Of a stretch of 64,000 bases of DNA, positions 14,623 through 31,149 are shown one piece after another. The notes beneath the pieces are model-generated. The model saw only the letters and a program-made list of their open reading frames with translations, did not search any database and had not been told where the DNA came from. Positions within the stretch are counted from its first letter, which is position 1, and every line of letters starts with the position of its first letter. A program made the position numbers and the translations under genes. Source of the stretch: an uncultured Tenacibaculum sp. (GTDB lineage: Bacteria; Bacteroidota; Bacteroidia; Flavobacteriales; Flavobacteriaceae); the NCBI RefSeq assembly GCF_947494125.1, contig NZ_CANLTU010000014.1, positions 2,177-66,176 on the forward strand. Direction: 5' to 3'.

Positions 14623-15462
14623 TTATTGATTTCCTAAAATAATTGGCATTCCGCTTTTACCAGCTCCAATTAATACTACTTTACTATTTGGAGATTGTGA
14701 TAATTTCAAAGTAGCTTCAATACCTTTATCTTGTAATATTTTATCTGTTAAAGATGCACTTAGAATTTTGTTTGCATCAGCCTTACCTTTTGCTTCAATT
14801 ATTTGTTTTTCTGCTTCTTTTTGAGCAGTAACTAATCTAAACTCATATTCTAAAGATTCTTGTTCTTGTTTTAATTTACGTTCAATTGCTTCTTTAATTG
14901 TTGATGGTAAAGTTACATCTCTAACTAATACTTCATTTAACTGAATATGTTGCTTATCTAATATTTTTCTTGTTTCTTCAAAAATTTCTGTTTGAATTAC
15001 ATCTCTTTTACTAGAATATAATTGTTCCGGAGTATAACGACCAACAACACTACGAGCTGCAGAACGAATAGCTGGTTGAATAACTCTAGAGATATAATTT
15101 TCTCCTTTTTCTTGATGTAACAAACCTATTTTTTCTGTTTGTGGTTGAAACCAAGCCGAAGCTTCTAATTGAATTTCTAATCCATTAGATGATAAAACCT
15201 GCATTTTTTCAAATATTTCTTGTTGACGTACTTCGTAAACAAAAACTTTATTCCAAGGTGCTACAATTTGAAATCCTTCGCCCAAAGCTGGCTCATCTGT
15301 TACTACTCCCCCTCCAAATGTTTTATATAAAACTCCGGCTTGTCCAGATTTTATAGTTACTGTTGATTTTGAAAAAAGTATGATTCCTATTACTGCTAAT
15401 ATCCCTATAAAGAAAATACCCTTTGGTAATTTAAAGTCTAGTTGTTGTCTATTATTATTCAT
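14623..15462 (-). CDS. SPFH/prohibitin (band 7) family membrane protein
   Basis: N-terminal TM; GEGFQIVAPWNKV, IRSAARSVVGRY and AIERKLKQEQE coiled coil; own -7 element TATTTTTG at 15488-15481. Confidence 0.9.
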   Translation of the reverse strand: MNNNRQQLDFKLPKGIFFIGILAVIGIILFSKSTVTIKSGQAGVLYKTFGGGVVTDEPALGEGFQIVAPWNKVFVYEVRQQEIFEKMQVLSSNGLEIQLEASAWFQPQTEKIGLLHQEKGENYISRVIQPAIRSAARSVVGRYTPEQLYSSKRDVIQTEIFEETRKILDKQHIQLNEVLVRDVTLPSTIKEAIERKLKQEQESLEYEFRLVTAQKEAEKQIIEAKGKADANKILSASLTDKILQDKGIEATLKLSQSPNSKVVLIGAGKSGMPIILGNQ

Positions 15463-15493
15463 TTTTATTTTTATTTATCTCAAAAATACTGAA

Positions 15494-17473
15494 TTAATTC
15501 TCATTATAGCGTAACAATCGTAATGCATTAAAAACAACTAATAATGTTGAACCTTCATGAATTAATACTGCTGGACCAATTTTTGCAAATCCAAATAAAG
15601 TTGCTGGTATTAAAATAGCCACAATACCTAAACTCATCCATAAATTCTGTTTAATTATTGTTTTTGACTTTCTACTTAAACCAATTACAAACGGTAAATT
15701 TTCAATTTTATCACTCATTAAGGCTACATCGGCAGTTTCTAAGGCTACATCACTTCCTGCTGCTCCCATTGCTATTCCAACAGTACTATTCGCCATTGCT
15801 GGGGCATCGTTTACTCCATCTCCAACCATTGCTATTTTAGTATCTCGCAATTTTAATTCTTGAATGGCTGCAACTTTATCTTCTGGCAATAAATTCCCTT
15901 TTACTTCTGTTAATCCTATTTGTTTTGCTATTGAATCTCCTACATTTTGATGATCTCCAGTTAGCATCACCATTTTCTTAATACCTATCTCTTTTAATCT
16001 TTTCAATGTATTTTTAGCCGATTCCCTTGGAACATCCATTACACTTAATAATCCAATTAGTTCGGTTTGATATGCTACTAACATTACAGTTTGTCCATTT
16101 TGAAGTAATTCTTTCATTGAATTTTCAACTTCCTCTGAAATAGCAATGTTTTTATCTGTCATTAACTTTTCATTACCTATAAATACTTTTTTTTCTTTAT
16201 AGTTTGCTGAAATACCTTTTCCTTGTATTGCTTTTATATTTGATGCTTTGTTTGAATTTTCAATCGAAAATTGTTCTTTTATATCTTTTGATATTGCTTT
16301 TGCTAATGGATGATTACTTAAACTCTCAACTGATAGAACTATATTTAAAAACTCTTTTCTATCAAAATTATTTAAAGAAATTGCATTGGTTAACTTTGGT
16401 TTTCCTTCTGTTAAAGTTCCTGTTTTATCAAAAGCTATAGTAGTTAAACTTCCTAAATCTTCTAAAGCCCTTCCTCCTTTTATCAATACACCACTTTTCG
16501 CTGCTCTTGCTACACCACTTAATACTGCACTTGGAGTTGATATTGCTAAAGCACATGGACTCGCGGCAACTAATACTGTAATTGCTCTGTATAAACTTTC
16601 ATTAAAAGTTTCATCGATTATTAAATAAGCAAAACATAAAGAAATTACCAAAACGATTACCATTGGTACAAACCATTTTTCAAACTTTTTAGTAAGCAAC
16701 TGTGTTGGTGATTTTTGAGTCTCTACTTCACTCACCATTTTTACTAATCGAGATATAGTGCTATCTACGCTTAATTTTAGCACTTTAACCTCCAATACAT
16801 TGTTTCCATTTATTGTTCCTGTATACACTACATTTTCAGTATCAATATTGTCAAAATCTAGCAATTTACTGGTATCTAAAACTGCTGTTTTATCTACTGG
16901 CATACTCTCTCCTGTTATAGAAGCTTGGTTTATACTACTGCTTCCTTTTACAATAACACCATCTGCTGCTATTTTTGTATTTGGTTTAACTACAATTACA
17001 TCATTTATTTTTAATTCTTCTACAGTTATTTCAATAATTAAATTTTCTCTTTTAACCAAGGCTGTTTTCGGTGATAATTCACCCAATGCTTCTATAGATT
17101 TTTTAGCTTTATTCATTGCATAATTTTCCAATGCATGTCCTATACTAAATAGAAATAGTAACAAGGCTCCTTCTTCCCATTTACCTATATAACCTGCACC
17201 AACAGCAGCTATAAGCATTAAAAAATCAATTTCAAATTGTCCTTTTCGAATCTTTTCTATGGCTTCTTTAGTTGTAAACCAACCTCCAAAAATAAAAGCA
17301 CTTATAAAATTAATTAAAGCATAACTTTCTGATAAATTAGTTGCTTTCTCTATAATTAAACCAGCAAAGAAAAATACCCCACTTAAAATTGCAAAATAAA
17401 GTTCTGTTTTCTCTCCCAATATACCTTCATGTTTGTGGTAATGATGTTGATTTTTAGAATGTTTTTCAGGCAT
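15494..17473 (-). CDS. cadA: Heavy-metal-translocating P1B-type ATPase (Zn/Cd/Co; CadA/ZntA-like)
   Basis: TGES, SPC in the transmembrane metal site, DKTGTLT, HP and GDGVNDAPA motifs; His-rich N-terminus HHYHKHEG. Confidence 0.9.
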   Translation of the reverse strand: MPEKHSKNQHHYHKHEGILGEKTELYFAILSGVFFFAGLIIEKATNLSESYALINFISAFIFGGWFTTKEAIEKIRKGQFEIDFLMLIAAVGAGYIGKWEEGALLLFLFSIGHALENYAMNKAKKSIEALGELSPKTALVKRENLIIEITVEELKINDVIVVKPNTKIAADGVIVKGSSSINQASITGESMPVDKTAVLDTSKLLDFDNIDTENVVYTGTINGNNVLEVKVLKLSVDSTISRLVKMVSEVETQKSPTQLLTKKFEKWFVPMVIVLVISLCFAYLIIDETFNESLYRAITVLVAASPCALAISTPSAVLSGVARAAKSGVLIKGGRALEDLGSLTTIAFDKTGTLTEGKPKLTNAISLNNFDRKEFLNIVLSVESLSNHPLAKAISKDIKEQFSIENSNKASNIKAIQGKGISANYKEKKVFIGNEKLMTDKNIAISEEVENSMKELLQNGQTVMLVAYQTELIGLLSVMDVPRESAKNTLKRLKEIGIKKMVMLTGDHQNVGDSIAKQIGLTEVKGNLLPEDKVAAIQELKLRDTKIAMVGDGVNDAPAMANSTVGIAMGAAGSDVALETADVALMSDKIENLPFVIGLSRKSKTIIKQNLWMSLGIVAILIPATLFGFAKIGPAVLIHEGSTLLVVFNALRLLRYNEN

Positions 17474-17523
17474 GTTTTTTGTTTCTTAATTGACATCATT
17501 ATTTATATAAAGATGCATTTTGT

Positions 17524-17562
17524 TTGAGGTATCTTAGATTTTTAAAACCTAAGATACCTCAA
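17524..17562. repeat. 14-bp perfect inverted repeat between czcB and the P-type ATPase
   Basis: ttgaggtatcttag / ctaagatacctcaa with an 11-nt loop; no U-tract on the transcribed (minus) strand. Confidence 0.8.
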
Positions 17563-17573
17563 TTATTTTTTAA

Positions 17574-18770
17574 TTAATGTGCATGTCCTTCCATTACTCC
17601 TGCCTGTTGCAGTAATTTACCTTTTAAGAAATGTGCTCCTTTGGTAACTATTTTAATATTAAAGTTATTATCCTGAATCGTTTTTATTTCTACAAACCCA
17701 TTGTCAGTATTCCCTAGTGTCACTTCTAATGGTATAAATTCTTCATTACTCTCTGCCTTAAAAATAAAACTTTCACCTTCATTATCTATAATTGCTTCTT
17801 CTGGAACAGCAAAAACTTCTTTACCTGCTAATAAGACTTGTGCATTGATAAACATTCCTGATTTTAAACGATTTTCTTCATCTTCAAAATGACCGTGTAC
17901 GTTTACTGTTTTAGTTTTTTCATCTACTTTTTGGCTAATTAATTTTATATATCCTTCATATTTTATATCCAAACCAGATGGAATAAAAATAAAATCATCT
18001 CCTTTTTTAATTTTAGTAATATCAGTACCAAAAACATTCAATTCAGCATGCATATGATCATTATCTATAATTTCCATCATTTCACTATTCGCAGCTAAAA
18101 ACATTCCTTTATTTAAATTATTTTCAACAATATAGCCTTCAATTGGAGCTTTTACGTAAACATATTGTTGAATTCCATTTTTAGCTACAGTTTTAGGTGA
18201 CAATCCTGCCATTTTTAATTGAGATGCATAACTACTTGTTAAACTCTTTGCTGAACGATAGATTCCTTCAGTAATTTGAAATGATTTTTTTGAAGTAATA
18301 TCGCTTTCTAATAGCATCTTTTTACGATTATAATCTGCTGTTGCTACATTTAAATTATTTATAGCTTCTAAGTATGCATATTGTAACTTTATAAAGTTTG
18401 GATGTTGCAATACTGCAATTGTTTGCCCTTTACGAACTTTGTCTCCTGGTAACAAGTCTGTTTTAAACACAAATGCTTCCATAGGTGCATATACTGTTGC
18501 TTTACTCTGCGGAGGTACTTCAATAGTACCCGTTACTTCTACTCTATCTCTAATTTTCTTTTTAGCTATACTTTCTACTTTTATCTTAGCTATTTCTAAT
18601 TGTGCTTTCGTTAAATGGATTTCATTTTCGTTGTGCTCTTCTTCAATAACAGCCGATTTTGTTTCTTTATTTTTTTCTTCTAAAGCATGGTCATGCCCTG
18701 AATGATCTTCTTTTTTTGAACTACAACTAATTGCTATAATTGTAATTAATACTAAAAATATTTTTTTCAT
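17574..18770 (-). CDS. czcB: RND efflux periplasmic adaptor (CzcB/CusB-like), lipoprotein with His-rich N-terminus
   Basis: Lipobox AISC; HSGHDH; VKAPIEGYI hairpin motif; AVPEEAI; directly downstream of czcA. Confidence 0.9.
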   Translation of the reverse strand: MKKIFLVLITIIAISCSSKKEDHSGHDHALEEKNKETKSAVIEEEHNENEIHLTKAQLEIAKIKVESIAKKKIRDRVEVTGTIEVPPQSKATVYAPMEAFVFKTDLLPGDKVRKGQTIAVLQHPNFIKLQYAYLEAINNLNVATADYNRKKMLLESDITSKKSFQITEGIYRSAKSLTSSYASQLKMAGLSPKTVAKNGIQQYVYVKAPIEGYIVENNLNKGMFLAANSEMMEIIDNDHMHAELNVFGTDITKIKKGDDFIFIPSGLDIKYEGYIKLISQKVDEKTKTVNVHGHFEDEENRLKSGMFINAQVLLAGKEVFAVPEEAIIDNEGESFIFKAESNEEFIPLEVTLGNTDNGFVEIKTIQDNNFNIKIVTKGAHFLKGKLLQQAGVMEGHAH

Positions 18771-18812
18771 TTTATAATGTCTTTTACTTTTAAATACTTA
18801 AAAGTCTATATG

Positions 18813-21800
18813 TTAATTCCTATTTTCTGTATAAAACTCGTAAGCTATTACAGTTTGATTGTAATTATTTATTAGTGATAAATAATTTTGCATTACCTGA
18901 AAATATGCATTAAAACTTTGATTATATTGATATGCATCTATCTCTCCAGATTTATATGCTAATTCCAACTTTTTAATAAATTTTTCCGCTTGTTTTTTCG
19001 TTTTATCTATACTTAACAGTTCGCTTTTTAAATACTTAATTTGATTTTGTAAGCTTTTAAAATTATTTTGAATTGCTATTCTTTTAGATTCATTTTCAAA
19101 TGCTACTTCTTCTTTAATTATCTTTTGTTGCTTAATTTTAGCATTATTTGACCAAAAAGATAATGGAATATTTAAACCTATATTAAATCCTGTATAGTCA
19201 TTATTACCTCCTGTTTTTCTATTAATAATTCCTGCTTTTAATTCTGGAAAATAAGTTGATTTTATTGCTAGCACACTTCTTTCTGCAACTATATTACTTT
19301 TTTCTAAGGCCTTTAAAAAGGTTTCTGAAAGTGTATCTTTGATTATTAAAACTTCCTTTTTATTTGGAAATTTACTCACTGGAATTATAGCTTCCTTTAA
19401 TTGCAATAATTCTTTTAACTCATTTTCCACTTTAAGGAAATCTTTATATACTTTACTTTTTTGAGATTGAACTCCTAAAGATTGTATGGCAGTTAAATCA
19501 TTTTCTAAACCTCCAATTTCTCCTGATTTATATAGCTTTTCTGCTATATTCTTTATCTGGCTCGTATTTTCTTGCTGTTCTTCCATTAAAGAGATCAATC
19601 CAAATAAATAATTCCACTGTTGGTATAGCTTCTTTACTTTCCTTTGAGTTTCTTTTTTTGAAATATCTCTTAAAGAATTTGCTAAAACTACTTTAGATTT
19701 TGCTAACTTTTTTCTCTGTATGTGAGATAGTATTGATCCAAAATTTTGATTTATAGCCCATTCTTTTTCTGATAATCCAGGTGCAACTCCTACATCTTGA
19801 TATTGTACCGATGTTGGTTTTATAATAATAGCTCCTGAAACTAAAGTTTCTTTTTTCTCTATATTTAAAGCTGCCTTTTTTAATAAAACATCTTTCTTTA
19901 AAGCTAAATTTATTACTTCTTTCTCTGATAATTTCCTCGGCATTTCTTGCGCTTGTGCTACTGAAATACTAAAAAGAAAAACAAGAACTGTAATACTTTT
20001 TGAAAGAATTTCTTTCTTTGTTTTAACAGTTTCAAACAGCATATATAATACTGGTAAAATTAATAATGTTAATAAAGTTGCAGATATTAAACCTCCTATA
20101 ACCACTGTAGCCAAAGGCTTTTGAACTTCTGCTCCTGCCGATGATGAAATTGCCATTGGTAAAAAACCTAAAGATGCTACGGCTGCTGTCATAATTACTG
20201 GTCTTAAACGAATTGATGTTCCTTTTTTAACTATTTCTTTTAAATTAGTTATGCCTTCTTTTTTTAAACGATTAAACTCGGCAATCAATACAATACCATT
20301 TAATACAGCTACACCAAATAAGGCTATAAACCCAATTCCTGCTGATATTGAAAATGGCATATCTCGTAACCACAACGCAAATATTCCTCCTATTGCTGAC
20401 ATTGGAATTGCTGTAAAAATTAAAATACTTTGCTTTATTGATTTAAACGTTATGTATAATAATAGAAATATTAATAATAAAGCTACTGGTACTGCTATTC
20501 CAAGACGAGCGCGGGCTTCTTCTAAATTTTTAAACGTTCCTCCGTATGTAATATAGTACCCTGGATCAAATTGGATTTCATTATTTACTTTCTGCTTTAA
20601 TTCAGCAACAATACTGGCAACATCACGTCCACGTACATTAAACCCTACAGTAATTCTACGTTTAGCATCATCACGTTGTATTTGATTTGGTCCTGTTTTA
20701 AAATCAACATTGGCTACATTTGCTAGCGGTATTTGAGCTCCGTTTGGCGTTGTTATATATAGTTTACGGATATCTTCTATATTAGCTCTATTCTTTTTTG
20801 CTAAGCGAACTACTAAATCAAAACGCTTTTCACCTTCATAAACAGAACCTGCATTTTGACCTGCAAATGCTGCATTTATAGCTGTATTTACATCAGATAT
20901 ATTTAATCCATAATACGCTAATTGGCTTCTATTATAATCTATTACAATTTGCTTAAGCCCTGTCATTTTCTCTACATACAAATCTTCTGCTCCTTCAACT
21001 TTTGGAATAATCTTACTCAGTTCATTTCCATATTTTACTAATTTATCTAAATCTTCTCCATAAATTTTTAAAACTACATCTTGCCTTGCTCCTGTCATTA
21101 ACTCATTAAAACGCATTTGAATAGGTTGTTGAAATCCAAATGAAACCCCCAACATATTGTCTTCTAATATTTTTTGCATTTTAGTAGTCAACTCATTTTT
21201 AGTTTCTGCTTTTGTCCACTTATCCTTATCTTTTAAAATAATTATAATATCTGAAGCTTCAATTGGCATTGGATCTGTAGGTATTTCTGAGGAACCTATT
21301 CTACTTACTATTTGCTCTATTTCATCTGGAAATTCTTTCAGTAATAATTCTGATGATTTATTAGAAACTTCTACTGTATAGGATAATGAACTCCCTGTAG
21401 AAACAATGGTTTGTACTGCTAAATCTCCTTCATCTAATGATGGTATAAATTCTGATCCCATTTTTGAAAAAGTAAACAGACTCAATCCAAAAATTAATAT
21501 GGCTCCAACAACAACTTTCTTTTGATTACCAAGTACAAATTCTAACAAAGGTGTATACCCTCTTTGTATTGTTTCAATAATTTTATCGGAAATATTCTTC
21601 TTATTGTTAATGGTCTTTTTAAGAAACAATGCACTCATCATAGGTACGTAGCTTAACGACAAAAGGAAAGCTCCTAAAATTGCAAAACTTACTGTCATAG
21701 CCATAGGTTTAAACATTTTTCCTTCTATACCTACTAATGCTAAAATTGGTAAATACACAATTAGAATAATGATTTCTCCAAAAGCTGCACTGGTTCTAAT

Positions 21801-23132
21801 TTTTGATGCAGAATTATATACTTCTTCATCCATTTCTTCTTGTGAAAGCTTTACTCCTGACTTTTTCAATCCTAAATAATGCAAAGTAGCTTCTACAATT
21901 ATTACAGAGCCATCTACAATAATTCCAAAATCTATAGCTCCTAAACTCATTAGGTTACCAGAAACGCCAAAAACGTTCATTAAGCTTATAGCAAATAGCA
22001 TTGCTAATGGAATTACTGATGCTACAATTAACCCCGCTCTTAAATTTCCTAATAGTAATACTAGTATAAAAATTACAATTAATGCTCCTTCTACAAGATT
22101 TGTTGCTACTGTTTTAATAGCTTTATCTACTAATTTTGTTCTATCTAAAAATGGCCTTATTGCGACACCTTCTGGTAAGCTTTTTTCTATTTGAACTATT
22201 CGTTCTTTTACATCTTTAATTACCTTTGATGAATTTGCTCCTTTTAGCATCATTACAATTCCTCCAACTACTTCTCCATCGGCATTTCTTGTCATTGCTC
22301 CATAACGAACTGCATGTCCTAATTGTACTTTTCCTATGTCTTTAATTAAAATAGGTGTGCCATTTTCAGTATTTTTTACTACTATATTTCTTATATCCTC
22401 AGGTGTTTTTATTAACCCTTGACTTCGAATAAAATAGGCTTTAGGATTTTTATCTATGTAGGCTCCTCCAGTATTTTGGTTGTTATTTTCTAAAGCTTTA
22501 AAAACTTCATTAATACTTACATTTAATGATTGCAACCTCTCTGGTTGGATGGCTACTTCATATTGTTTTAAAAAACCTCCAAAGCTACTTACATCTGCTA
22601 CTCCTTCTATTCCTAGTAGTTGTCGACGAACTATCCAATCTTGAATGGAACGTAATTCCATTATTGGGTACAGCTTTTCAAATCCATTTTTAGCATATAA
22701 AGTATATTGATATATTTCTCCTAATCCAGTTGTTACCGGCGCCATTTCTGGAGTTCCTACTCCTTCTGGTACTTGATTCTTTGCTTCAACTAAGCGTTCA
22801 CTTATTTGTTGACGTGCCCAATAAATATCTACTTTATCTTTAAAAACGACTGTTACTACACTTAAACCAAATCGAGAAAAAGATCGTATTTCTTCTATAT
22901 TTGGAATACTCGACATTGTCATTTCTATTGGAAAAGTAACTAAGCGCTCAATGTCTTGGGCTGACTGTGATGGTGCTGATGTTATTATTTGCACCTGATT
23001 GTTGGTTATATCCGGTACTGCATCAATTGGTAATTGTTTTAAGGAATATAATCCCCATCCAATTAATGCGAATACCAAAGCTCCAATAATCAATTTATTT
23101 TTAATTGAAAATTTTATGATATTATCTAACAT
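18813..23132 (-). CDS. czcA: CzcA/CusA heavy-metal RND transporter fused to a C-terminal TolC/CzcC-like outer membrane factor
   Basis: DAVPDITNNQVQ, GAIDFGIIVDGSVIIVE and RLRPVIMTA motifs in the first ~1040 aa; ~380 aa helical OMF-like C-terminal domain. Confidence 0.93.
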   Translation of the reverse strand: MLDNIIKFSIKNKLIIGALVFALIGWGLYSLKQLPIDAVPDITNNQVQIITSAPSQSAQDIERLVTFPIEMTMSSIPNIEEIRSFSRFGLSVVTVVFKDKVDIYWARQQISERLVEAKNQVPEGVGTPEMAPVTTGLGEIYQYTLYAKNGFEKLYPIMELRSIQDWIVRRQLLGIEGVADVSSFGGFLKQYEVAIQPERLQSLNVSINEVFKALENNNQNTGGAYIDKNPKAYFIRSQGLIKTPEDIRNIVVKNTENGTPILIKDIGKVQLGHAVRYGAMTRNADGEVVGGIVMMLKGANSSKVIKDVKERIVQIEKSLPEGVAIRPFLDRTKLVDKAIKTVATNLVEGALIVIFILVLLLGNLRAGLIVASVIPLAMLFAISLMNVFGVSGNLMSLGAIDFGIIVDGSVIIVEATLHYLGLKKSGVKLSQEEMDEEVYNSASKIRTSAAFGEIIILIVYLPILALVGIEGKMFKPMAMTVSFAILGAFLLSLSYVPMMSALFLKKTINNKKNISDKIIETIQRGYTPLLEFVLGNQKKVVVGAILIFGLSLFTFSKMGSEFIPSLDEGDLAVQTIVSTGSSLSYTVEVSNKSSELLLKEFPDEIEQIVSRIGSSEIPTDPMPIEASDIIIILKDKDKWTKAETKNELTTKMQKILEDNMLGVSFGFQQPIQMRFNELMTGARQDVVLKIYGEDLDKLVKYGNELSKIIPKVEGAEDLYVEKMTGLKQIVIDYNRSQLAYYGLNISDVNTAINAAFAGQNAGSVYEGEKRFDLVVRLAKKNRANIEDIRKLYITTPNGAQIPLANVANVDFKTGPNQIQRDDAKRRITVGFNVRGRDVASIVAELKQKVNNEIQFDPGYYITYGGTFKNLEEARARLGIAVPVALLLIFLLLYITFKSIKQSILIFTAIPMSAIGGIFALWLRDMPFSISAGIGFIALFGVAVLNGIVLIAEFNRLKKEGITNLKEIVKKGTSIRLRPVIMTAAVASLGFLPMAISSSAGAEVQKPLATVVIGGLISATLLTLLILPVLYMLFETVKTKKEILSKSITVLVFLFSISVAQAQEMPRKLSEKEVINLALKKDVLLKKAALNIEKKETLVSGAIIIKPTSVQYQDVGVAPGLSEKEWAINQNFGSILSHIQRKKLAKSKVVLANSLRDISKKETQRKVKKLYQQWNYLFGLISLMEEQQENTSQIKNIAEKLYKSGEIGGLENDLTAIQSLGVQSQKSKVYKDFLKVENELKELLQLKEAIIPVSKFPNKKEVLIIKDTLSETFLKALEKSNIVAERSVLAIKSTYFPELKAGIINRKTGGNNDYTGFNIGLNIPLSFWSNNAKIKQQKIIKEEVAFENESKRIAIQNNFKSLQNQIKYLKSELLSIDKTKKQAEKFIKKLELAYKSGEIDAYQYNQSFNAYFQVMQNYLSLINNYNQTVIAYEFYTENRN

Positions 23133-23142
23133 TTTTCATGTA

Positions 23143-23262
23143 TTTAATTCTATTTTAATATGATATATCCCGAATTAACTTTGAAAGTTATCGGTATAAC
23201 AACATGTAATTCTTGTGTAGACAAGAATTATAAACTGTTAAAATTTAAAATGTAGAATTAAA
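23143..23262 (-). promoter_or_regulatory. Predicted multi-stem RNA structure sequestering the czcA translation-initiation region
   Basis: 23253-23262 is complementary to 23143-23152, and 23245-23250 to 23153-23158. The enclosed hairpins are 23207-23230 (10 bp) and 23170-23194. Confidence 0.6.
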
Positions 23263-23599
23263 CCCGTGGAGGCTGAAAAAGTTCATCTAAAAAGTTAGAT
23301 GCATTTAAATGTTTACGAAAAAGTATTTTCTTTTTTACTTGTAATGGTTTTACAAATAAATAATTAAATTCTTTTGTAATAATAGCATTAGATATACCAA
23401 GAGAAATACAGTGATGATGATGCTCTTTACTTTTCTCTTCTTCTGTATCATTTTCATGATGAGAATCATGATGTGTACTATCTATTACATCAATATGTGC
23501 CTCAGTTAAATCGTCTTCAAAAATAATAGCATCCGCATGTGCTTGTACTGGTGGTACAAACAATAAAAGCGTTAATATTATGATACTAATATTTTTCAA
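23258..23599 (-). CDS. Small His-rich leader ORF (DUF6660/DUF2946-like) ending LFQPPRV; candidate arrest peptide
   Basis: 113 aa, TTG start, signal peptide (AHA|D), HHDSHH...HHHHC cluster, C-terminal QPP; -7 element TAGCTTTG at 23629-23622. Confidence 0.75.
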   Translation of the reverse strand: MKNISIIILTLLLFVPPVQAHADAIIFEDDLTEAHIDVIDSTHHDSHHENDTEEEKSKEHHHHCISLGISNAIITKEFNYLFVKPLQVKKKILFRKHLNASNFLDELFQPPRV

Positions 23600-23696
23600 A
23601 TCAATCTTATAAGATTATATGCAAAGCTATTAAAAAAAAATAATATTTTCTTTTTTTAACTGCTTTTAATAAATTGAAATACGTCTATATATAGAA

Positions 23697-23725
23697 CAAC
23701 CTGTATTAAAAAATAATACAGGCTG
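23697..23725 (-). terminator. Probable terminator of the TonB receptor gene
   Basis: cctgtatta/taatacagg stem 25 nt past the stop codon, with a weak U-tract. Confidence 0.55.
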
Positions 23726-23750
23726 CTGTAATAATTATAAATTACTCTTT

Positions 23751-26141
23751 TTAATTTCTATTACTTCTTTTTGCATTTCTATTTTTATCAGATGGTTTTT
23801 GGTTAAACTTATATACAAAACTCAATGAAAATCTTTGTGCATTTCTACTTCTATCTTGATAGATTGAAAAATTATCGCCTGTAATTTGTTCTCTTGACCT
23901 TCTTGTATCAAGTACATTGTAAATATTAAAGATTAAACTTCCTTTATTATTGAACAAACTTTTTTGTAATCCAAAATTTAAATTGGTTATAGGTTTTGTC
24001 TTTGTTTGTGCATTACTTTCTTCTCCTTGATGAAAAATTCTTGTTTGAAGCCGTATGGTTTTAGTTGGTCTAATATTCATTGTGAAATTTGTAAACCAAG
24101 TATTGTTTGAAAAATCTGCAACTTTATTATTAAGTATTCCTTTTTGTTTAAAAGCGTACATATTAAAATCTCCCGAAAACCTTAACCATTTTAATGGATT
24201 GTATGACGCAGATAACTCAGCTCCATATCGCTTTTCATTATCTAAGTTTATAGGTGATTGAATAAAAATGCCTTCATTATTTTGTTTTGTTTCATATTGA
24301 AATACATCATTGGTACCTGAATAATAAATAGAAGGATTTAATCTAAATTTATTTCCTCTGTAAATAAGAGATAATTCAATAGCATCTGTATATGATGGAT
24401 TTAATGCTGGATTTCCTGTAAATCTAGATGTAAAATCTTTTAATTGAAAAAAAGGATTTAATTGCCATAATGATGGTCGACTAATACGTTTACTATAATT
24501 TATTTGTCCACTAAAGTTTTCTTTAAACTCATATCCTAATGTAGCTGATGGAAATAAATTTGTATAATTATTTTTTAAGTTTAATGTTGTTTCTGATGCT
24601 TGTATATCAATACTTGTATTTTCTAATCTTAATCCTACTTGGTAACTAATTTTTCCCTTTTTAGAATTTAATTGTGCATAACCCGACATTATTTTTTCTT
24701 TATAATTTAATTGATTATTTATATTATCAATTACCTCAAACTGTCCATTAATTAATTCTTCAGCTAAGAATTCATTTGTTATTTTTCTATTTTCAAACTT
24801 TGCTCCTATTTCAAAATTAGATTGTTTATTTATTGGTGTTTTAAAATCTGTTTGAATTACAATATCATCTGTACTTCCCTTTCCTTTTGTTTGAATGGTT
24901 GTTTGAGCAATAGATGTTGTAGGAAATTTTTCATCCGTTTGTAAATGCCAATCTTTTTCACTGTTCCAAAAATCATATTGAAAATCTATTGTTAATTTCT
25001 GACCTTTTTTAGCAAATGTTTTCGTGTAATTTGCTTCTAATTGGTTATAATCTCTTTCTTCTTTAGAATTACCTATAGTTTGTAACGATTGTGATAAAAC
25101 TCCTGAGTTAGAAAAATCATAAAATAAATTTGTTACATCTGTATCTTCTGTTTCATTTCTATAATAAGCTACTGTAATTGTATTTTTATCATTTATATAA
25201 TAATCTGTACCAAAATAAAATAGTTGTCCATCATCATGTCTATCTTCATCTTCTCTTTGATTTAAAAAAGTTGTGATATTATTTTCTGTAGTTGTTTGTT
25301 GTTTAAAATATTCTCCTTCATAATCTGTATATCTAATTCCTATGTTGGTGAAAAAATTAAATTTATTTGCTTTATAATTTAAATTTCCAATAGCTCTAAA
25401 ATCATCTGGAACACCTGATACTAAACGTACTTGACCATTTAACCCTGTTTTTCTATTCTTTTTAAGTATTATGTTAATAATACCTGCTGAACCTGAAGCA
25501 TCATATTTTGCTGATGGATTTGTAATAACCTCTATACTTTCAATAACATCTGCGGATAATTGTTCTAATGCTTGCGATTGTGTTAATGCTGAACGTCTTC
25601 CGTTTATCATTACTTGTACATTAGCGTTTCCACGTAAACTTACCGTTCCTGTAGGGCTGACATTTACTGATGGCACATTACTTAATACATCTGTTGCTGA
25701 ACCACTTTGTGAAGTAATATCTTTACCAACTCTGAACACTTTCTTTCCCAATTTTAAAGAGACTTCTGATGTTTCTGCCTTTACCACTATTTCATCAAGT
25801 GTTTTTGTATTCTCTTTTAATATTATGCTACCTAAACTTACAATTCTTTGTTCTTTAGTTATTTTAATTTTTCTTTCAATGGTTTCAAAACCTATATATT
25901 GAATTTCTAAGTTATAATCTCCTATAAGTATCTTAGAAAAAGTAAATAATCCTTCTTCATCGGTAACAACACCTTCTAAAATTTGTTTAGAAGCGTCTTT
26001 TAAAACAACTGTTGCATACGGTAATGTTTCTTTTGAACTATCTACAATTTTACCTGAAATTTTTCCATTACTAGATTGTTTCTGTGCCAATACTGAAATA
26101 CTAAAAAGCAAACAGATTAATAGGTTTATAAATGTTTTCAT
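23751..26141 (-). CDS. TonB-dependent receptor / outer-membrane beta-barrel protein with N-terminal CarboxypepD_reg-like domain
   Basis: GKISGKIVD...LPYATV, plug motif IESIEVITNPSAKYDASGSAGIINIILKK and barrel strands. Confidence 0.88.
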   Translation of the reverse strand: MKTFINLLICLLFSISVLAQKQSSNGKISGKIVDSSKETLPYATVVLKDASKQILEGVVTDEEGLFTFSKILIGDYNLEIQYIGFETIERKIKITKEQRIVSLGSIILKENTKTLDEIVVKAETSEVSLKLGKKVFRVGKDITSQSGSATDVLSNVPSVNVSPTGTVSLRGNANVQVMINGRRSALTQSQALEQLSADVIESIEVITNPSAKYDASGSAGIINIILKKNRKTGLNGQVRLVSGVPDDFRAIGNLNYKANKFNFFTNIGIRYTDYEGEYFKQQTTTENNITTFLNQREDEDRHDDGQLFYFGTDYYINDKNTITVAYYRNETEDTDVTNLFYDFSNSGVLSQSLQTIGNSKEERDYNQLEANYTKTFAKKGQKLTIDFQYDFWNSEKDWHLQTDEKFPTTSIAQTTIQTKGKGSTDDIVIQTDFKTPINKQSNFEIGAKFENRKITNEFLAEELINGQFEVIDNINNQLNYKEKIMSGYAQLNSKKGKISYQVGLRLENTSIDIQASETTLNLKNNYTNLFPSATLGYEFKENFSGQINYSKRISRPSLWQLNPFFQLKDFTSRFTGNPALNPSYTDAIELSLIYRGNKFRLNPSIYYSGTNDVFQYETKQNNEGIFIQSPINLDNEKRYGAELSASYNPLKWLRFSGDFNMYAFKQKGILNNKVADFSNNTWFTNFTMNIRPTKTIRLQTRIFHQGEESNAQTKTKPITNLNFGLQKSLFNNKGSLIFNIYNVLDTRRSREQITGDNFSIYQDRSRNAQRFSLSFVYKFNQKPSDKNRNAKRSNRN

Positions 26142-26204
26142 ATTTTTTGAGTTTTAATTTTCATCAAAAATCAACACAAAATCGTATTCTTATATTTAAA
26201 ATTA

Positions 26205-26239
26205 TGTAAACTGCTCTAACCATTTGTAAACTGCTCTAA
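26205..26239. promoter_or_regulatory. 15-bp perfect direct repeat (TGTAAACTGCTCTAA x2, 20-bp period); putative LytTR binding site
   Basis: Copies at 26205-26219 and 26225-26239, between the divergent TonB receptor and LytS/LytTR genes. Confidence 0.7.
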
Positions 26240-26284
26240 AAACACTTTTATTTCATTTACTTTTACCATAATAAAATAGTATTC

Positions 26285-27985
26285 ATGAATAAAATACTTT
26301 ACATATCTTTTATACTACTACTTGTTTCATGTAAAAATGAAATAAAACGAGACAAGGCTTTTCTTAAAATTCACGAAAATAGCTCCAAAACATTGTACAA
26401 AACTGGAGACAACTCTTCTTGGGCTTTAAAGGATTTTAATGATAGTAATTGGAGTATAAAGAAGACTATTCCTGAAGGAGATAGTATTTTTTGGGCTAGA
26501 AAAATACTTAAAACAGTTAAAGCTCCAGATTCATTACAAAAAACGGGTTTAAACATACATACTTTTGGAGCTTATGAAGTATTTTGGGATGGTGTCTTAA
26601 TAGGACGAAATGGACAGCCTGGAAATGAATTTAACAATAAAAAAACAGGTGGAACAACGGAAACCTTTCTAATCCCAAATAACTTACTTAATGCTGGAAA
26701 TCATACTATTGCCTTAAGAATGTCTCAATTATATGAAAAGGAATCACCACGTGGAATTTACATATCTGTATATAATTATAAAGAACTAATTACTAATAAA
26801 TTAAAAGATACCATCTACATAAATATTTTAGCGGGAGCTTTTTTACTTGCAACTATTTACTATTTCTTTTTATATATAAATGATAGAAAACAATATACAA
26901 TGTTGTTATTTAGTTTGTCTAGTTTTTTATTTTTCCTCTTAATTATTTTAGAGTATATAAAATTTTACATCCCTATTCATTATTCTGATTTTATCTTACG
27001 TTTAAAGGCTATTGGTATATTAACTTTACTCATATCGTTTTTAGTTCCCTATTATTTCGCTGTACAGTTTTCTTTTGTTTATCGTAAATGGTTTTTCTTA
27101 GCTTATGCCATATTCCAAATTTGGATCTATAATTTTTATTCACATTCATTCGATTATACAGCCTTATATTTAGCCCAAATGATGTGGTTATCTTCTACTT
27201 TAATTATATGCTATGCTATATACAAAAAACAAAAAGCTGCTATAGTGGTACTAATTGGACTATTACTCAGTTTTACTGTATATAAAATCTCCATTTACGA
27301 CGTTAGTTTGTTTGTAAGTTTTGGTATTATTTCTTTGTGTATGTTCTACTTATTATCTGTAAAATTAAAAGAGCAAAGATTAGCTTTTGAGCATTCTATA
27401 GCTGAATCTACAAGATTAAAATATGAGTTATTAAAAAAGAAAATACAACCTCATTTTTTAATGAACACCTTAACTTCTTTGATTGATTGGGTTGAAGAAG
27501 CTCCAGATAAAGGAGTAGAATTTATTGAAGCTTTAGCTGATGAGTTTGATTTATTAAATCAAGTAGAAAATGAAACATTAATTCCTATCTCTCAAGAAAT
27601 AAAACTTTGTAAGAGTCACTTAAACATTATGAAATACAGAAAGGAGATTGATTACGTTTGGGAAGATGAAGGTGTTTTAAATGATGATTCTCAGAAGATT
27701 CCGCCAGCAGTTATTCATACTCTATTAGAAAATAGTATTACACATTGTTTGCCTCTTAAAAATAACTCAATACGTTTTAAATTAGTTGTAAAAACCAATG
27801 AACAACAACAAAGCTACACCTTTATTACTTTTGCTAAAGTTAGGAATTTACAAAAAGAAAGAGCTGACGGAACTGGTTTTAAATATATAAAAGCTCGATT
27901 AACCGAAAGTTATAAAAACCGTTGGCATTTTAGTTCAGAATCGACAAAAGATGGATGGAAGAATGTAATTACAATTTTAAATTAG
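26285..27985 (+). CDS. LytS/YehU-family sensor histidine kinase with periplasmic jelly-roll domain and multiple TM helices
   Basis: IQPHFLMNTL H-box, EIKLCKSHLNIMKYR and LLENSITH motifs; multiple TM segments; N-terminal LVSC lipobox-like signal. Confidence 0.88.
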   Translation: MNKILYISFILLLVSCKNEIKRDKAFLKIHENSSKTLYKTGDNSSWALKDFNDSNWSIKKTIPEGDSIFWARKILKTVKAPDSLQKTGLNIHTFGAYEVFWDGVLIGRNGQPGNEFNNKKTGGTTETFLIPNNLLNAGNHTIALRMSQLYEKESPRGIYISVYNYKELITNKLKDTIYINILAGAFLLATIYYFFLYINDRKQYTMLLFSLSSFLFFLLIILEYIKFYIPIHYSDFILRLKAIGILTLLISFLVPYYFAVQFSFVYRKWFFLAYAIFQIWIYNFYSHSFDYTALYLAQMMWLSSTLIICYAIYKKQKAAIVVLIGLLLSFTVYKISIYDVSLFVSFGIISLCMFYLLSVKLKEQRLAFEHSIAESTRLKYELLKKKIQPHFLMNTLTSLIDWVEEAPDKGVEFIEALADEFDLLNQVENETLIPISQEIKLCKSHLNIMKYRKEIDYVWEDEGVLNDDSQKIPPAVIHTLLENSITHCLPLKNNSIRFKLVVKTNEQQQSYTFITFAKVRNLQKERADGTGFKYIKARLTESYKNRWHFSSESTKDGWKNVITILN

Positions 27986-27988
27986 CCT

Positions 27989-28687
27989 ATGAAAATTTTA
28001 ATTATTGAAGATGAAGCTCGCATCGCTAAAAGAATTGAACGTATGACTAAAGAATTCTTTTTAAACACACTTCAAGAATTAACCTGTGTACATTCTTTGG
28101 CTGAAGGCATTGAATATATTCAAAATAACAAACTAGACTTATTATTACTAGATTTAAACCTTAATGGTGAAAGTGGTTTTGAGGTTTTACAAAACAGTGT
28201 TTCTGAAGCTTTTCACACTATTATTATATCTGCAAATAAACATCAAGCTTTAACAGCCTTTGAGCATGGTGTTTTAGATTTTGTTCCTAAACCTTTTAAT
28301 AAAAACAGATTAGAACAAGCTTTCAATAGAATTATAAAAAAAGAAGAAGTTACTACTGAAAACTTGCAATATTTAGCTATTAAAAAACGTACAGGAGTTC
28401 AATTAATAGATATCAAAAATGTAAGATATATTAAAGGAGCTGGTGTATATACTGAAGTTTTCTTGACCAACGAACAAAAAGAATTACACGATAAATCTTT
28501 AGAAAAACTTTCTCAATTATTACCTGAATCTTTTCAGCGTATCCATAAATCTTATTTAGTAAAAATTACTGAAATTAAAGAAATCATTGTACAAACTGGA
28601 AGTAAATATTCCATTGAATTGAATAATGGAGAGATTTTACCTGTTGGTAGAACTAAATATAAAGAATTAAAAAAGTTATTTTTTTAA
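27989..28687 (+). CDS. LytTR family response regulator
   Basis: Receiver domain (IIEDE, LLDLNL, DFVPKP) and LytTR domain (FQRIHKSYLV, LPVGRTKY). Confidence 0.93.
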   Translation: MKILIIEDEARIAKRIERMTKEFFLNTLQELTCVHSLAEGIEYIQNNKLDLLLLDLNLNGESGFEVLQNSVSEAFHTIIISANKHQALTAFEHGVLDFVPKPFNKNRLEQAFNRIIKKEEVTTENLQYLAIKKRTGVQLIDIKNVRYIKGAGVYTEVFLTNEQKELHDKSLEKLSQLLPESFQRIHKSYLVKITEIKEIIVQTGSKYSIELNNGEILPVGRTKYKELKKLFF

Positions 28688-29065
28688 TCTGTCTTTTGCG
28701 TATTCTATTTTTGTTTTTCCATGAGCAACAGGAGTGCCTTCTTCATCTAAACTAACCATAATTATTTTATCAATAGCAATAATAGTTTTCTGCGTAATCT
28801 TATTACGTACTTCGCAATTTAAAGTAATAGATGATCTTCCAAACTTTACAACTTCTATACCTATTTCTATAATGTCTCCTTGCTTTGCAGAACTTACAAA
28901 GTCTATTTCCGACATAAACTTAGTTACTGTTTTTGGAATTTCTAATTGAATAATAGCATATAAAGCAACTTCTTCATCAATCCATTGTAATAAACGACCA
29001 CCAAACAAAGTTCCATTTGGATTTAAATCTTCTGGTTTTACCCATTTTCTAGTGTGAAATTTCAT
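28676..29065 (-). CDS. Acyl-CoA thioesterase (hotdog fold, YciA-like)
   Basis: DLNPNGTLFGGRLLQWIDEE motif. Confidence 0.9.
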   Translation of the reverse strand: MKFHTRKWVKPEDLNPNGTLFGGRLLQWIDEEVALYAIIQLEIPKTVTKFMSEIDFVSSAKQGDIIEIGIEVVKFGRSSITLNCEVRNKITQKTIIAIDKIIMVSLDEEGTPVAHGKTKIEYAKDRLKK

Positions 29066-29130
29066 ATATTTTATTTTACTACAAATTTCAATAATTAGGT
29101 TTAGTAAACCTATTAAACTCTATTTGTTTT

Positions 29131-31149
29131 TTATATTTTACCATAGTATTTTCTAATAAACCATTCTATAGATAACAATGCTATAATTAAAAATAAAGCC
29201 CATTTCCAATTAATTAAATTTTGCTTTTTGGTAATAGATTTCTGTGTTGTAAAATATGATTTATTTACTGATAATTCTTCCAACAAATCATTGACTTTAT
29301 TGGCATGAAACAATTTACCATTTGTCTTTAATGCTAAAGAATTAAGTTTTTTATAATTTGCATTTGTAAATTGCTGTTCAACTTGATAATCGGTAACTTT
29401 AAACTTTCCGTAACTACTTATATTTTGATTATTAACAGATACTTTATAAGTATAGTCTCCCGAAGATAAACCTTCAACAGATACTTGGTATGAATTACTT
29501 ACTAATGAAAAAGGAACTGTCTTTTTCTCTTTATTTTTTTCATTTGTAATCGTTAATTGCAATGCAGCTCTATTATCAAACTTAAAATTTTTATCAACAT
29601 AAAAAGCTGTAATAGAAACGGGTGTATTAGCAGGATACAATCGTTCTGCGTTAACCTCTAATCTTTTTCTTTTTTTGTTTGATGCTAAATATTGTACTAA
29701 ACTTCCTAAAAACGAGTCAAATTCTTCAAAAGACTGATCTTTTAAAAAACTTGCAGCTCTCCATTTCCAAATTCCTTCACCAAATAGAACTGCATATTTC
29801 TCCTCATTATTTTCAATGGTAGTTAATAAAGGCTGCTGCGTTTCAACTCCTGCATATTTTTGGTACAATAAATTTTGTGATTTGTTATTCAATATAACTT
29901 CTCCAAATTTATCTCTTAAAGGCGGAAATTCATTAAAACCTATATCTTTTTGTAAAAAAGTTAGAAAATTATCATTATAAATGGCAGCATACTCTTCTAT
30001 TTGATTAATTGCTTGTTTTCTAATTCCTAGTTCTTGAGAATTTATAAAGTTCCAATCAGTTTTAGTTCCAGAAACTAACAAATAATTTGAAGGTATTTTT
30101 TCTAAAATATTTTTAAAATAACTATTAGGCTGATACAATACAAAAAATTGATAATCAGCAATATTAATATTTTTATTACTTACTAAAGCAATATCAGCTT
30201 TACGTTGTTTATTACTTTCTATAGATTTTTTTATAGCACCTAAATCAGGATGTAAAAAAGAACTAACAATTAGCACTTTTGTTTGCTCATCTAGTATTTC
30301 AACTGAAAAGTTTTTATAATTATTTTTTATATTTTTTTCATTTTCAATTTTACGAATTGATGCCGAATAATATTGCAAGCCTTTTTCTCCTGATAATAGA
30401 TTCGTAGAAACTGTTTGTGATGGATTTGACGAAGAAAACTGTAATTTCTTTGAAAATACTCTTTTTCCTTTATGCGTAATTGTAAAAACAGAATTTACAT
30501 TTCCTTTTCCTTGGTAGTACAATAATACTTCTACAGGAAACTTATTTTTTATATAACTATACTTGTTAACATTTAACTGTGAAATTTCTAAATCTTGATA
30601 TCTTGTTGTATCTCCTATAACAATTGGATAAATGCTATTTTTAGTGTTTGTATACTCATAATCATCTCCATTTGTTTGATTACCATCACTAATTAAAATA
30701 GTAGCGTTATTCGCATCTTTATTTAATTGATTAACAGATTCAATCGCTTGTGAAATATCAGTTTGAGTTTCTAAAAAAGATAAACTATCAAGTACAGTAG
30801 TTGTTTTTCCAAAAGAAAATAATTGAACATTAAATTTATCTTGTACATTTTTGTTTTCTTCTATATCTTTTAAAATAGTAGTTATTGCAGTCTCTTCTTT
30901 AAAATATTTTACAGAAAGAGAATTATCTACTAAAACAGATAAAATTGGTTTCTTATTTTCAATTTCAATGGTTTCTATTTTTGGGTTAATTAGCAATAAA
31001 ATTAACAGAAACAAGCTTAAAGCTTTTAAAAAGAATAGTAAAACGTGAATTTTAGGTGTTTTTTTCGTTTTATAAAAATATTGAAAAAAAGCAATAGTAA
31101 CACTTACTAAAATTGCTAAAACTATATATACGAGAGTTAATGATTCCAC
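29131..31149 (-). CDS. vWA-domain membrane protein
   Basis: N-terminal TM pair; LVDNSLS MIDAS-like motif, TDISQA and LISDGNQT; C-terminal LLSIEWFIRK TM. Confidence 0.8.
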   Translation of the reverse strand: MESLTLVYIVLAILVSVTIAFFQYFYKTKKTPKIHVLLFFLKALSLFLLILLLINPKIETIEIENKKPILSVLVDNSLSVKYFKEETAITTILKDIEENKNVQDKFNVQLFSFGKTTTVLDSLSFLETQTDISQAIESVNQLNKDANNATILISDGNQTNGDDYEYTNTKNSIYPIVIGDTTRYQDLEISQLNVNKYSYIKNKFPVEVLLYYQGKGNVNSVFTITHKGKRVFSKKLQFSSSNPSQTVSTNLLSGEKGLQYYSASIRKIENEKNIKNNYKNFSVEILDEQTKVLIVSSFLHPDLGAIKKSIESNKQRKADIALVSNKNINIADYQFFVLYQPNSYFKNILEKIPSNYLLVSGTKTDWNFINSQELGIRKQAINQIEEYAAIYNDNFLTFLQKDIGFNEFPPLRDKFGEVILNNKSQNLLYQKYAGVETQQPLLTTIENNEEKYAVLFGEGIWKWRAASFLKDQSFEEFDSFLGSLVQYLASNKKRKRLEVNAERLYPANTPVSITAFYVDKNFKFDNRAALQLTITNEKNKEKKTVPFSLVSNSYQVSVEGLSSGDYTYKVSVNNQNISSYGKFKVTDYQVEQQFTNANYKKLNSLALKTNGKLFHANKVNDLLEELSVNKSYFTTQKSITKKQNLINWKWALFLIIALLSIEWFIRKYYGKI

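Follow-up and report, generated by a model that had tools for sequence, protein, structure and literature searches.

A His-rich leader with a covarying stem ahead of czcA in Tenacibaculum: a candidate nascent-chain metal switch

Introduction

How is a metal-efflux operon controlled when no metal-responsive transcription factor is evident adjoining it? The question is raised by the czcA operon in a 64,000-nucleotide (nt) stretch of contig NZ_CANLTU010000014.1 from an uncultured Tenacibaculum sp. (hereafter, the window), which is headed by a small open reading frame (ORF), here called the leader; czcA begins 125 nt past the leader stop codon. The original prediction saw in this ORF a translational attenuator in which ribosome stalling would be promoted by metal. 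Only two proteins have been shown to sense periplasmic metal as nascent chains, the copper sensors CutF and CruR, both from Proteobacteria, and the locus would offer a genetically testable case in another phylum, with a set of His4-Cys ligands (probably for Zn or Cd) and a resistance-nodulation-division (RND) efflux pump as the target. A cis-acting translational switch is well supported by our in silico data. With considerable reserve, we regard the leader as probably a regulatory leader of the CutF type, in which metal would prolong a pause at two C-terminal prolines and so turn the pump on.

Results

A leader with a predicted export signal and a fixed spacing between HHHHC and Pro-Pro

The leader and its elements are located in the window as follows.

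23258–23599, minus strand: leader ORF of 113 amino acids (aa), with a TTG start at 23599, a TAA stop at 23260–23258 and the tail FQPPRV-stop.
23540–23599, minus strand: predicted signal peptide, codons 1–20 (MKNISIIILTLLLFVPPVQA, followed by HAD), from hydropathy and a V-Q-A cleavage-type site.
23408–23473, minus strand: putative metal-ligand region H43–C64 (HHDSHHENDTEEEKSKEHHHHC), ending in an invariant HHHHC, from the sequence and the homologue alignment.
23267–23272, minus strand: codons of Pro110-Pro111 (CCU CCA), the proposed pause site; this Pro-Pro (PP) is invariant in homologues.
23622–23629, minus strand: Bacteroidota-type −7 promoter element TAGCTTTG (TAnnTTTG), read from the sequence, 22 nt before the TTG.

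The 113-aa ORF with a signal peptide, HHHHC64 and Q-P110-P111 that had been described here was confirmed at 23599–23258 of the minus strand. Its protein reads MKNISIIILTLLLFVPPVQA up to the predicted cleavage point and HADAIIFEDDLTEAHIDVIDSTHHDSHHENDTEEEKSKEHHHHCISLGISNAIITKEFNYLFVKPLQVKKKILFRKHLNASNFLDELFQPPRV from there on, and because it has no internal Met, the TTG start is required. The His, Cys and Pro residues of interest are H43H44, H47H48, H60–H63, C64 and P110-P111, the last of which are followed by Arg, Val and the stop codon. A basic K2, a 12-residue hydrophobic core (residues 4–15; Kyte-Doolittle mean 2.5 across residues 7–17) and a cleavage site between VQA and H suggest a signal peptide, a call made by inspection and hydropathy. 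By the same means, neither a second hydrophobic segment nor a lipobox or lipidation Cys was found in the 113 residues, and one database source labels a leader homologue “conserved exported protein”. A second near-invariant Pro-Pro, P16-P17, lies in the c-region of the signal peptide (FVPPVQA, residues 14–20; 23540–23560, minus strand).

The TAnnTTTG box was found in 44 of 56 related loci, mostly 16–30 nt before the leader start. Since this box precedes the leader and the upstream gene ends in a hairpin, we infer that the leader heads its own transcript. Within the HHHHC subfamily (loci L001–L030), leaders start with TTG (17 loci) or GTG (8 loci) and hardly ever with ATG, and the box mostly sits ∼25–30 nt before the start, so that the 5′ untranslated region would be very short. 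Between the −7 box and the TTG of the window, at 23603–23616 (minus strand), lies a 14-nt perfect palindrome, AATCTTATAAGATT, which is not kept in other loci.

Homologues of the leader, with E-values reaching 1e-64 for the best, are present in 26 of 101 Tenacibaculum genomes. Their alignment shows H60–H63, C64, Q109, P110 and P111 to be invariant, and HHHHC is unchanged in all 20 of 20 close homologues. As to the 46-aa spacer of the original prediction, C64 and P110 are 46 positions apart, and the intervening residues number 45. Counted over 57 distinct family members, 45 residues separate the Cys of HHHHC from the first Pro in 46 members, 46 in ten and 43 in one. The Cys itself ranges over residues 59–68, and the length before it thus varies by 9 residues. 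The Cys-to-PP spacer is the least conserved stretch in sequence, yet it is fixed in length. The last ∼20 residues of the leader, (F/Y)(Y/H)...S(Y/F)L..(L/I)FQPP, are conserved, in which the family resembles arrest peptides.

The family is narrow, with 52 clusters among 1.84 billion representative sequences. No Pfam or NCBIfam family was matched by the leader ORF or by six distant relatives, even at E ≤ 10, and the label “DUF6660-like” given to it earlier was dropped. By sequence, the leader is also no member of DUF2946: the Pfam model (PF11162) has zero matches genome-wide at E ≤ 10, and where DUF2946 has the hallmarks CXXC/CXXXC and RAPP, the leader has HHHHC, with a single Cys, and FQPP. Some UniRef entries nonetheless name leader homologues “DUF2946 domain-containing”.

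Such conservation could also mark a stable periplasmic metal-binding protein that acts in trans, as a chaperone or a CzcI-like regulator, with FQPP as a protein-level motif and the RNA stem described below serving coupling or mRNA stability. The predicted signal peptide and the conservation of the whole protein, including its mature N-terminal part (DAIIF, HHxNDTEEEK), speak for such a protein, and small periplasmic proteins (CzcI, CusF) accompany RND metal pumps in Proteobacteria. Against it, no fold was predicted with confidence by AlphaFold2 from the family alignment (mean pLDDT, the predicted local distance difference test, 50.6; below 50 for residues 77–113), and a spacer that is fixed in length and loose in sequence is not what a trans-acting protein would lead one to expect. 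The spacing is that of CutF and CruR and the tail that of CutF, both of which act as nascent chains, and CutF, too, is exported and then degraded. On balance, we consider a trans-acting protein unlikely, and the RNA evidence below, which bears on it as well, points in the direction of the favoured cis-acting leader.

The end of the leader is predicted to pair with the czcA start region

The predicted fold of the intergenic region comprises the following parts.

23245–23263, minus strand: 5′ arm of the closing stem in the minimum-energy fold, made up of helix I (GUUUAAUUCUA), which spans the stop codon 23260–23258, and helix II.
23142–23158, minus strand: 3′ arm of the closing stem in the minimum-energy fold, UUAAAAUAGAAUUAAAU, at −10 to −26 of the czcA ATG.
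23170–23240, minus strand: two internal hairpins, 23240–23197 and 23194–23170, which bring the arms together.
23132–23138, minus strand: 3′ side (UGAAAAA) of an outer helix of 7 base pairs (bp), pairing with codons 107–109 (23280–23274).

The ViennaRNA minimum-energy fold of 23280–23120 has an energy of −30.4 kcal/mol, compared to −19.1 ± 3.3 kcal/mol for 200 shuffles (z = −3.39), none of which was as good. The closing stem begins in the last sense codon of the leader and encloses a multiloop with two hairpins. A stem of 16 bp with a 2-nt bulge had been proposed at this place and is reproduced by the fold, with the correction that helix I (23263–23253 with 23152–23142) has 11 bp, the ten noted before plus an outer G.U pair. 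The bulge separates helix I from the 6 bp of helix II (23250–23245 with 23158–23153). The two further hairpins of the earlier proposal were recovered as well (23230–23207, 10 bp; 23194–23170), the perfect 10-bp core of the first being extended by 6 more pairs to 23240–23197. The outer 7-bp helix would cover −6 to +1 of the czcA ATG, including its A; it is found only in the closest relatives and is thus weaker evidence. An out-of-frame mini-ORF, AUG AAA AAU GUU AGA UAA (23122–23139, minus strand), overlaps the czcA start and occurs only here and in the closest relative, L002.

How often chance would give such a stem was gauged from 620 intergenic regions between same-strand genes of this genome: 2.3% of them contain 11 or more consecutive pairs that link the stop region to the 34 nt preceding the following start, so that the window locus taken singly is only modestly unusual. 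The weight is carried by conservation and covariation across loci rather than by the single-locus fold. Rfam gave no match at E ≤ 1 in 23000–23750.

The two internal hairpins were also considered as attenuators; this was dropped when a terminator scan found no terminator-like site in the intergenic region.

Conservation and covariation of the closing stem

We oriented 28 Tenacibaculum loci and compared them from the Pro-Pro codons up to the following gene; L023 was excluded when stems were counted. In 24 of the 28 loci, the closing stem has an uninterrupted run of 10 or more canonical pairs, and the 3′ arm ends 0–13 nt ahead of the downstream ATG. In minimum-energy folds, the stem is the closing helix of the entire intergenic region; one or two internal hairpins, of varying sequence, are predicted in nearly all loci. 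The arms fall into at least eight sequence types, e.g., UUCUA/UAGAA, UUAAUUAU/AUAAUUAA, UUUGUU/AACAAA, UUUAUUA/UAAUAAA, AAUUAUAA/UUAUAAUU and UUCAGUU/AACUGAA, and every type retains arm complementarity. Compensatory changes occur also within types (L001/L003, L013/L015, L004/L017), and G.U pairs are tolerated (L030). The stem is kept where the downstream gene differs, and also when the intergenic loop grows to 323–513 nt.

Longer loops of this kind, with insertions of 200–400 nt inside the loop and a closing stem that is still predicted, are seen in L003 and L006 (about 325–330 nt) and in L015 (513 nt). The insertions of L003 and L006 carry a G+C-richer segment (GAAGCAATTTCCCGCTTTCCGCACTCGC...) that resembles a small repeat element.

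Covariation was scored on an alignment of the two arms only, joined through an artificial GAAA linker, against 500 shuffles. In this arm-only alignment, 92.1% of the cells are paired, compared to 73.0 ± 1.8% in shuffles; compensatory cells number 44, compared to 14.7 ± 2.7; and the covariation score is 0.452, compared to 0.124. None of the 500 shuffles reached any of the three values. Changes on both sides were seen in 7 of 12 stem pairs. Registers shifted by 1–3 columns leave 29–55% of the cells paired (32% for a shift of 2 columns), and cognate arm duplexes have a mean energy of −10.0 kcal/mol, 3.7 kcal/mol better than the −6.3 kcal/mol of non-cognate ones. RNA folding and covariation, named with the original prediction as a check on it, came out in its favour, and comparison across loci lends the predicted RNA half of the switch unusually strong support.

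The same data bear on control at the level of transcription, in which a paused ribosome would shield the RNA from Rho or a terminator and the hairpins would be attenuator elements. CruR sets a precedent, as it uses Rho-dependent termination with a long intergenic region, of 162 nt; the one found here has 125 nt. The empty terminator scan argues against such control, as does the inspected intergenic RNA, which is AU-rich rather than C-rich and heavily structured. Moreover, U-runs do not follow the internal hairpins in most loci, and the conserved pairing of the leader end with the downstream start points to control of initiation. Transcriptional control is therefore very unlikely in our view, and we return to a switch acting on translation.

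The stem is anchored to the Pro-Pro codons

The usual tail of a leader is PP, two residues and the stop codon. The 5′ arm starts 3 nt past the second Pro codon in the window; of the 24 loci with 10 or more consecutive pairs, 23 have it 2–6 nt past this codon. In six loci the in-frame stop is shifted 9–33 nt past PP (L018–L022, with tails of 3–11 residues, and L030, with a tail of 10 residues). The 5′ arm still lies 3–8 nt past PP in these loci, there inside the coding tail, which indicates that the stem is placed relative to Pro-Pro and not to the stop codon. This placement is a further point against a protein acting in trans.

In a partition-function model, bases covered by a ribosome were made unpairable, and the mean unpaired probability of −22 to +4 of czcA was read out. 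This probability is 0.23 for the free RNA, 0.57–0.60 with the P-site on either Pro codon and 0.64 with the ribosome at the stop codon, and trends are similar in 17 other loci. By this model, the czcA start region is opened by a ribosome at PP to almost the same extent as by one that terminates. That a terminating ribosome would open the stem regardless of pausing also suits the trans-acting protein, for which the stem would need to provide no more than coupling.

The operon, its interchangeable cargo and the sign of the response

Downstream of the leader, Pfam and NCBIfam matches define four genes.

18813–23132, minus strand: czcA, fused to a TolC-like outer-membrane factor domain, 1439 aa (Pfam ACR_tran, 1.9e-283, and OEP; TIGR00914).
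17574–18770, minus strand: czcB adaptor.
15494–17473, minus strand: P1B ATPase of the Zn/Cd type (ZntA-like).
14623–15462, minus strand: Band 7/SPFH protein.

The CzcA assignment includes a match of 1202 bits to the CusA/CzcA model TIGR00914. The CzcA-TolC fusion runs in one frame, with ACR_tran at residues 5–1033 and OEP up to residue 1435. Given this operon content of CzcA, CzcB and a ZntA-like ATPase, Zn or Cd would be the likely ligand.

In every locus with a callable downstream gene, this gene follows the leader directly and shares its strand. A CzcA-type pump is the first gene in 44 of 56 loci, and in 12 of the 28 Tenacibaculum loci, a TonB-dependent receptor (TBDT) follows the leader in place of czcA. 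Downstream genes starting with MIKNI...AQN had been candidates for outer-membrane efflux factors, which was rejected after Pfam identified them as TBDTs. Five of the TBDT-first loci were examined in full: L057, L058 and L061 have a TBDT together with a ZitB-like exporter of the cation diffusion facilitator (CDF) family, and L059 and L060 a TBDT alone. These five share their chromosomal site with the window operon (14623–31149), as the 672-aa neighbour is 69% identical and Band 7 is 63–91% identical. The cargo between the leader and Band 7 differs, being CzcA-OEP, CzcB and the P1B ATPase in the window and TBDT plus CDF, or TBDT alone, in the other loci. A TBDT that is co-operonic with a cation exporter is odd in itself.

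An exchange of cassettes at one site raises the possibility that the arms are DNA-level inverted repeats left by this exchange and have no function as RNA. In favour of this, the differing cargo always lies at the same site, between leader and Band 7, and the whole intergenic region travels with it. Such repeats would not, however, account for arms that, whatever the cassette type, keep their places with respect to the PP codons and the downstream ATG, for the within-type compensations and the tolerated G.U pair listed above, or for a sequence-unrelated second leader in the window that has the same design. We find this explanation scarcely credible and keep to a stem that functions in the mRNA.

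The 12 receptor loci bear more directly on the sign of the response. The same cis-acting pause and stem could work in the opposite sense: the apo chain would pause, metal or folding at the translocon exit would pull the chain and relieve the pause, and expression would fall. In a variant, a ribosome paused at the foot of the stem would hold back other ribosomes by which the stem would have been opened, and with the P-site on the first Pro, a ribosome indeed reaches only the first few pairs of a 10–15-bp stem. CruR works in this sense for a TonB-dependent importer (PMC9426467), and the 12 loci with the leader directly before a TBDT resemble that arrangement. The predominance of CzcA-type pumps as first gene points the other way, as does the ZitB-like exporter in three of the five TBDT-first operons. 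An efflux operon turned off by metal would be maladaptive, and the folding model has the ribosome at PP opening the start region nearly like a terminating one. We therefore regard the opposite sign as doubtful. A receptor-only operon fits “off with metal”, the logic of CruR, better, and a CDF or RND operon fits “on with metal”, the logic of CutF. Because 12 sister loci place leader and stem before a TBDT, polarity is not settled by an argument from function.

A proposed mechanism and the evidence against it

Export, pausing, metal binding and the sign of the response are read from the anatomy of the leader and from precedent, and the mechanism that we favour would run as follows. Its own promoter would drive the leader, and SecYEG would export the product as it is being translated. 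With the ribosomal P-site on Pro110 or Pro111, His4-Cys would be 45–46 residues from the peptidyl-transferase centre, approximately the length of exit tunnel and translocon together, so that HHHHC64 would just be emerging on the periplasmic side. Occupancy of His4-Cys, most likely by Zn(II) or Cd(II), may then alter the dwell time at Pro-Pro. The leading edge of a paused ribosome would sit in the first pairs of the 5′ arm, 3 nt past the Pro codons, and the stem would stay open. An open stem would free the 3′ arm (−10 to −26 of czcA) for the 30S subunit and allow translation of czcA, czcB and the ATPase gene, and if the leader were finished quickly, the stem would re-form and mask the czcA start region. 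Bacteroidota are poor in Shine-Dalgarno sequences, and initiation depends on unstructured upstream RNA. As for polarity, we favour that metal would lengthen the pause and turn the pump on, as shown for CutF.

Several points weigh against this mechanism. In the EF-P literature, Q-P-P followed by R, K or Q is not known to be among the strongest polyproline stall contexts. Metal-induced folding of a nascent chain usually releases an arrest rather than strengthening it, as seen in force-release experiments. With its single conserved Cys, the leader family cannot work by the disulfide-based pulling put forward for CutF, at least not in unchanged form. The mature N-terminal region is well conserved, as would befit a secreted protein with a function of its own. 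The alignment of the arms was made to fit the helix register, the loci are related, and part of the covariation reflects whole intergenic cassettes inherited with their cargo (L009 compared to L011) rather than independent point compensation. In the folding model, any terminating ribosome opens the stem, and plain translational coupling thus explains part of the design. Finally, the leader lies ahead of a TBDT in 12 sister loci, of which L059 and L060 lack an efflux gene, an ill fit to an operon turned on by metal. The earlier interpretation as a translational attenuator keeps the support of a conserved exported-type His-rich ORF, a compensated PP-anchored stem and a CutF-like design; its polarity, argued from function, does not stand on that argument, given these 12 loci.

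Related and unrelated leaders with the same geometry

A related subfamily of 131–138 aa is present in 37 of 300 Flavobacteriaceae genera, always ahead of a CzcA-like gene. Its members begin with ATG, carry HSHxQCCHP 44–45 residues before ...YLESLFQPPKV and have a stop-to-start stem of 10–11 bp. Since these leaders and their intergenic regions are near-identical across many genera, recent horizontal spread is suggested. Just 5′ of the −7 box of the 131–138-aa leaders (L025–L056) lies a conserved TTGCACAACCnnTGCA motif (TGCA-N8-TGCA), which could be an operator or a −33 element.

The window itself holds a counterpart of the leader, as the original prediction had implied in calling it one of two independent ones.

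35991–36311, plus strand: second leader of 106 aa with the tail ...SRGPPYFTV, of the same design and unrelated in sequence to the first.

In the second leader, H55 lies 45 residues before PP, and a ZnuD/heme-receptor-like TBDT gene (36370–38631) starts 58 nt downstream. Its 5′ arm, UAUUUUACUGU, starts right after the PP codons, inside the YFTV tail; its pairing partner, ACAGUAAAAUA, lies ∼8 nt ahead of the AUG (fold z = −2.0).

The 45-residue ruler is identical in families without detectable similarity, which argues that ribosome tunnel and SecY channel set the design. It is possible, and we propose it tentatively, that leader and stem form a portable sensor cassette in which geometry (the 45-residue ruler and a stem just past PP) is selected rather than sequence, and which has arisen or been retained in unrelated families across phyla, with interchangeable cargo in Flavobacteriaceae. 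If so, bacteria without Shine-Dalgarno-led initiation would have a general transmembrane nascent-chain sensor for Zn or Cd, in which one design possibly gives opposite outputs. A regulatory role would also give a function to small “hypothetical” genes in about one in eight of the sampled Flavobacteriaceae genera, and it would explain how metal-resistance operons are controlled without an adjacent transcription factor.

Comparison with known systems

The closest precedent is CutF of Rhodobacter capsulatus (cutFOG). CutF has a Sec signal peptide, a CxxxC motif, 45 aa from there to the C-terminal motif and the tail GPPPRL-stop, and a stem-loop masks cutO's ribosome-binding site; copper on the exported nascent chain prolongs a stall at PPP, upon which the ribosome melts the stem and CutO is made (10.1101/2022.11.11.516240, 10.1101/2025.02.05.636593). 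cutF acts only in cis, and the CutF protein is undetectable in cells (same references). The leader resembles CutF in its small size (113 aa compared to 118 aa), its predicted Sec signal peptide and its metal-ligand motif, in the ∼45 residues that separate this motif from a C-terminal proline repeat, in the two residues between that repeat and the stop (FQPPRV-stop compared to GPPPRL-stop), in the stem predicted by fold and covariation over the start region of the next gene, and in being the first gene of a metal-detoxification operon. In contrast to these likenesses, the two have no detectable sequence homology, and the DUF2946 model does not match the leader. CutF has CxxxC, two further Cys and PPP, whereas the leader has His4-Cys, with a single Cys, and PP. 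CutF has a simple stem-loop that masks a Shine-Dalgarno site, whereas the leader has a long-range helix that closes an intergenic region of 69–513 nt with inner hairpins and would mask an AU-rich region. The target of CutF is a multicopper oxidase, and the targets of the leader, known here from sequence, are an RND pump or a TBDT.

CruR (Bp2923) of Bordetella pertussis, a DUF2946 protein, has CXXC, 45 intervening residues and RAPP three residues before its end; this spacing is kept within 1–2 residues in >2000 DUF2946 proteins, and five additional residues abolish regulation (Roy et al., mBio 2022, PMC9426467). Copper relieves the CruR arrest, which leads to Rho-dependent termination before the TBDT gene and turns the operon off (PMC9426467). 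Like CruR, the leader is an upstream ORF with a predicted export signal that heads a metal operon, keeps the ∼45-residue spacing from metal motif to proposed arrest motif throughout its family and has xxPP a few residues before the stop; some DUF2946 members precede TonB-dependent receptors, as the leader does in the 12 sister loci. CruR differs in its CXXC and RAPP motifs, its Rho-dependent termination, its copper-relieved arrest and its dispensable signal peptide.

SecM, VemP and MifM likewise are exported nascent chains in which a stem masking a downstream start is held open by arrest at the C-terminus, but they sense translocation or insertion activity instead of metal and have other arrest motifs. 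CzcI of Cupriavidus metallidurans is, like the leader, a small exported protein encoded upstream of a pump operon, czcCBA, and the CutF paper places it among CutF-like clusters. CzcI is set apart by its description, as it has no proline motif at the C-terminus and is proposed to function as a protein.

A survey of CutF-like proteins, defined by a length of <150 aa, PP within the last 15 residues and an N-terminal signal peptide, listed 5,334 proteins; Bacteroidota contribute 19% of them (40% once normalised), and the genes often found downstream, also of the Bacteroidota proteins, include ACR_tran (CzcA-like) ones (Ozturk et al., mBio 2023, PMC9973294). The leader has all of these features, with 113 aa, P110-P111 and a signal peptide by inspection, together with czcA 125 nt downstream and the putative HHHHC64 ligand. 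Earlier work had thus already listed Bacteroidota CutF-like ORFs before RND pumps, and our literature search found no experimental study of such a leader in Bacteroidota or before czcA. We conclude that the leader is a new, well-supported case of the published CutF-like design, to which it would add a long-range covarying stem anchored at the proposed pause site, a His4-Cys ligand set, masking that is independent of a Shine-Dalgarno sequence, and interchangeable cargo.

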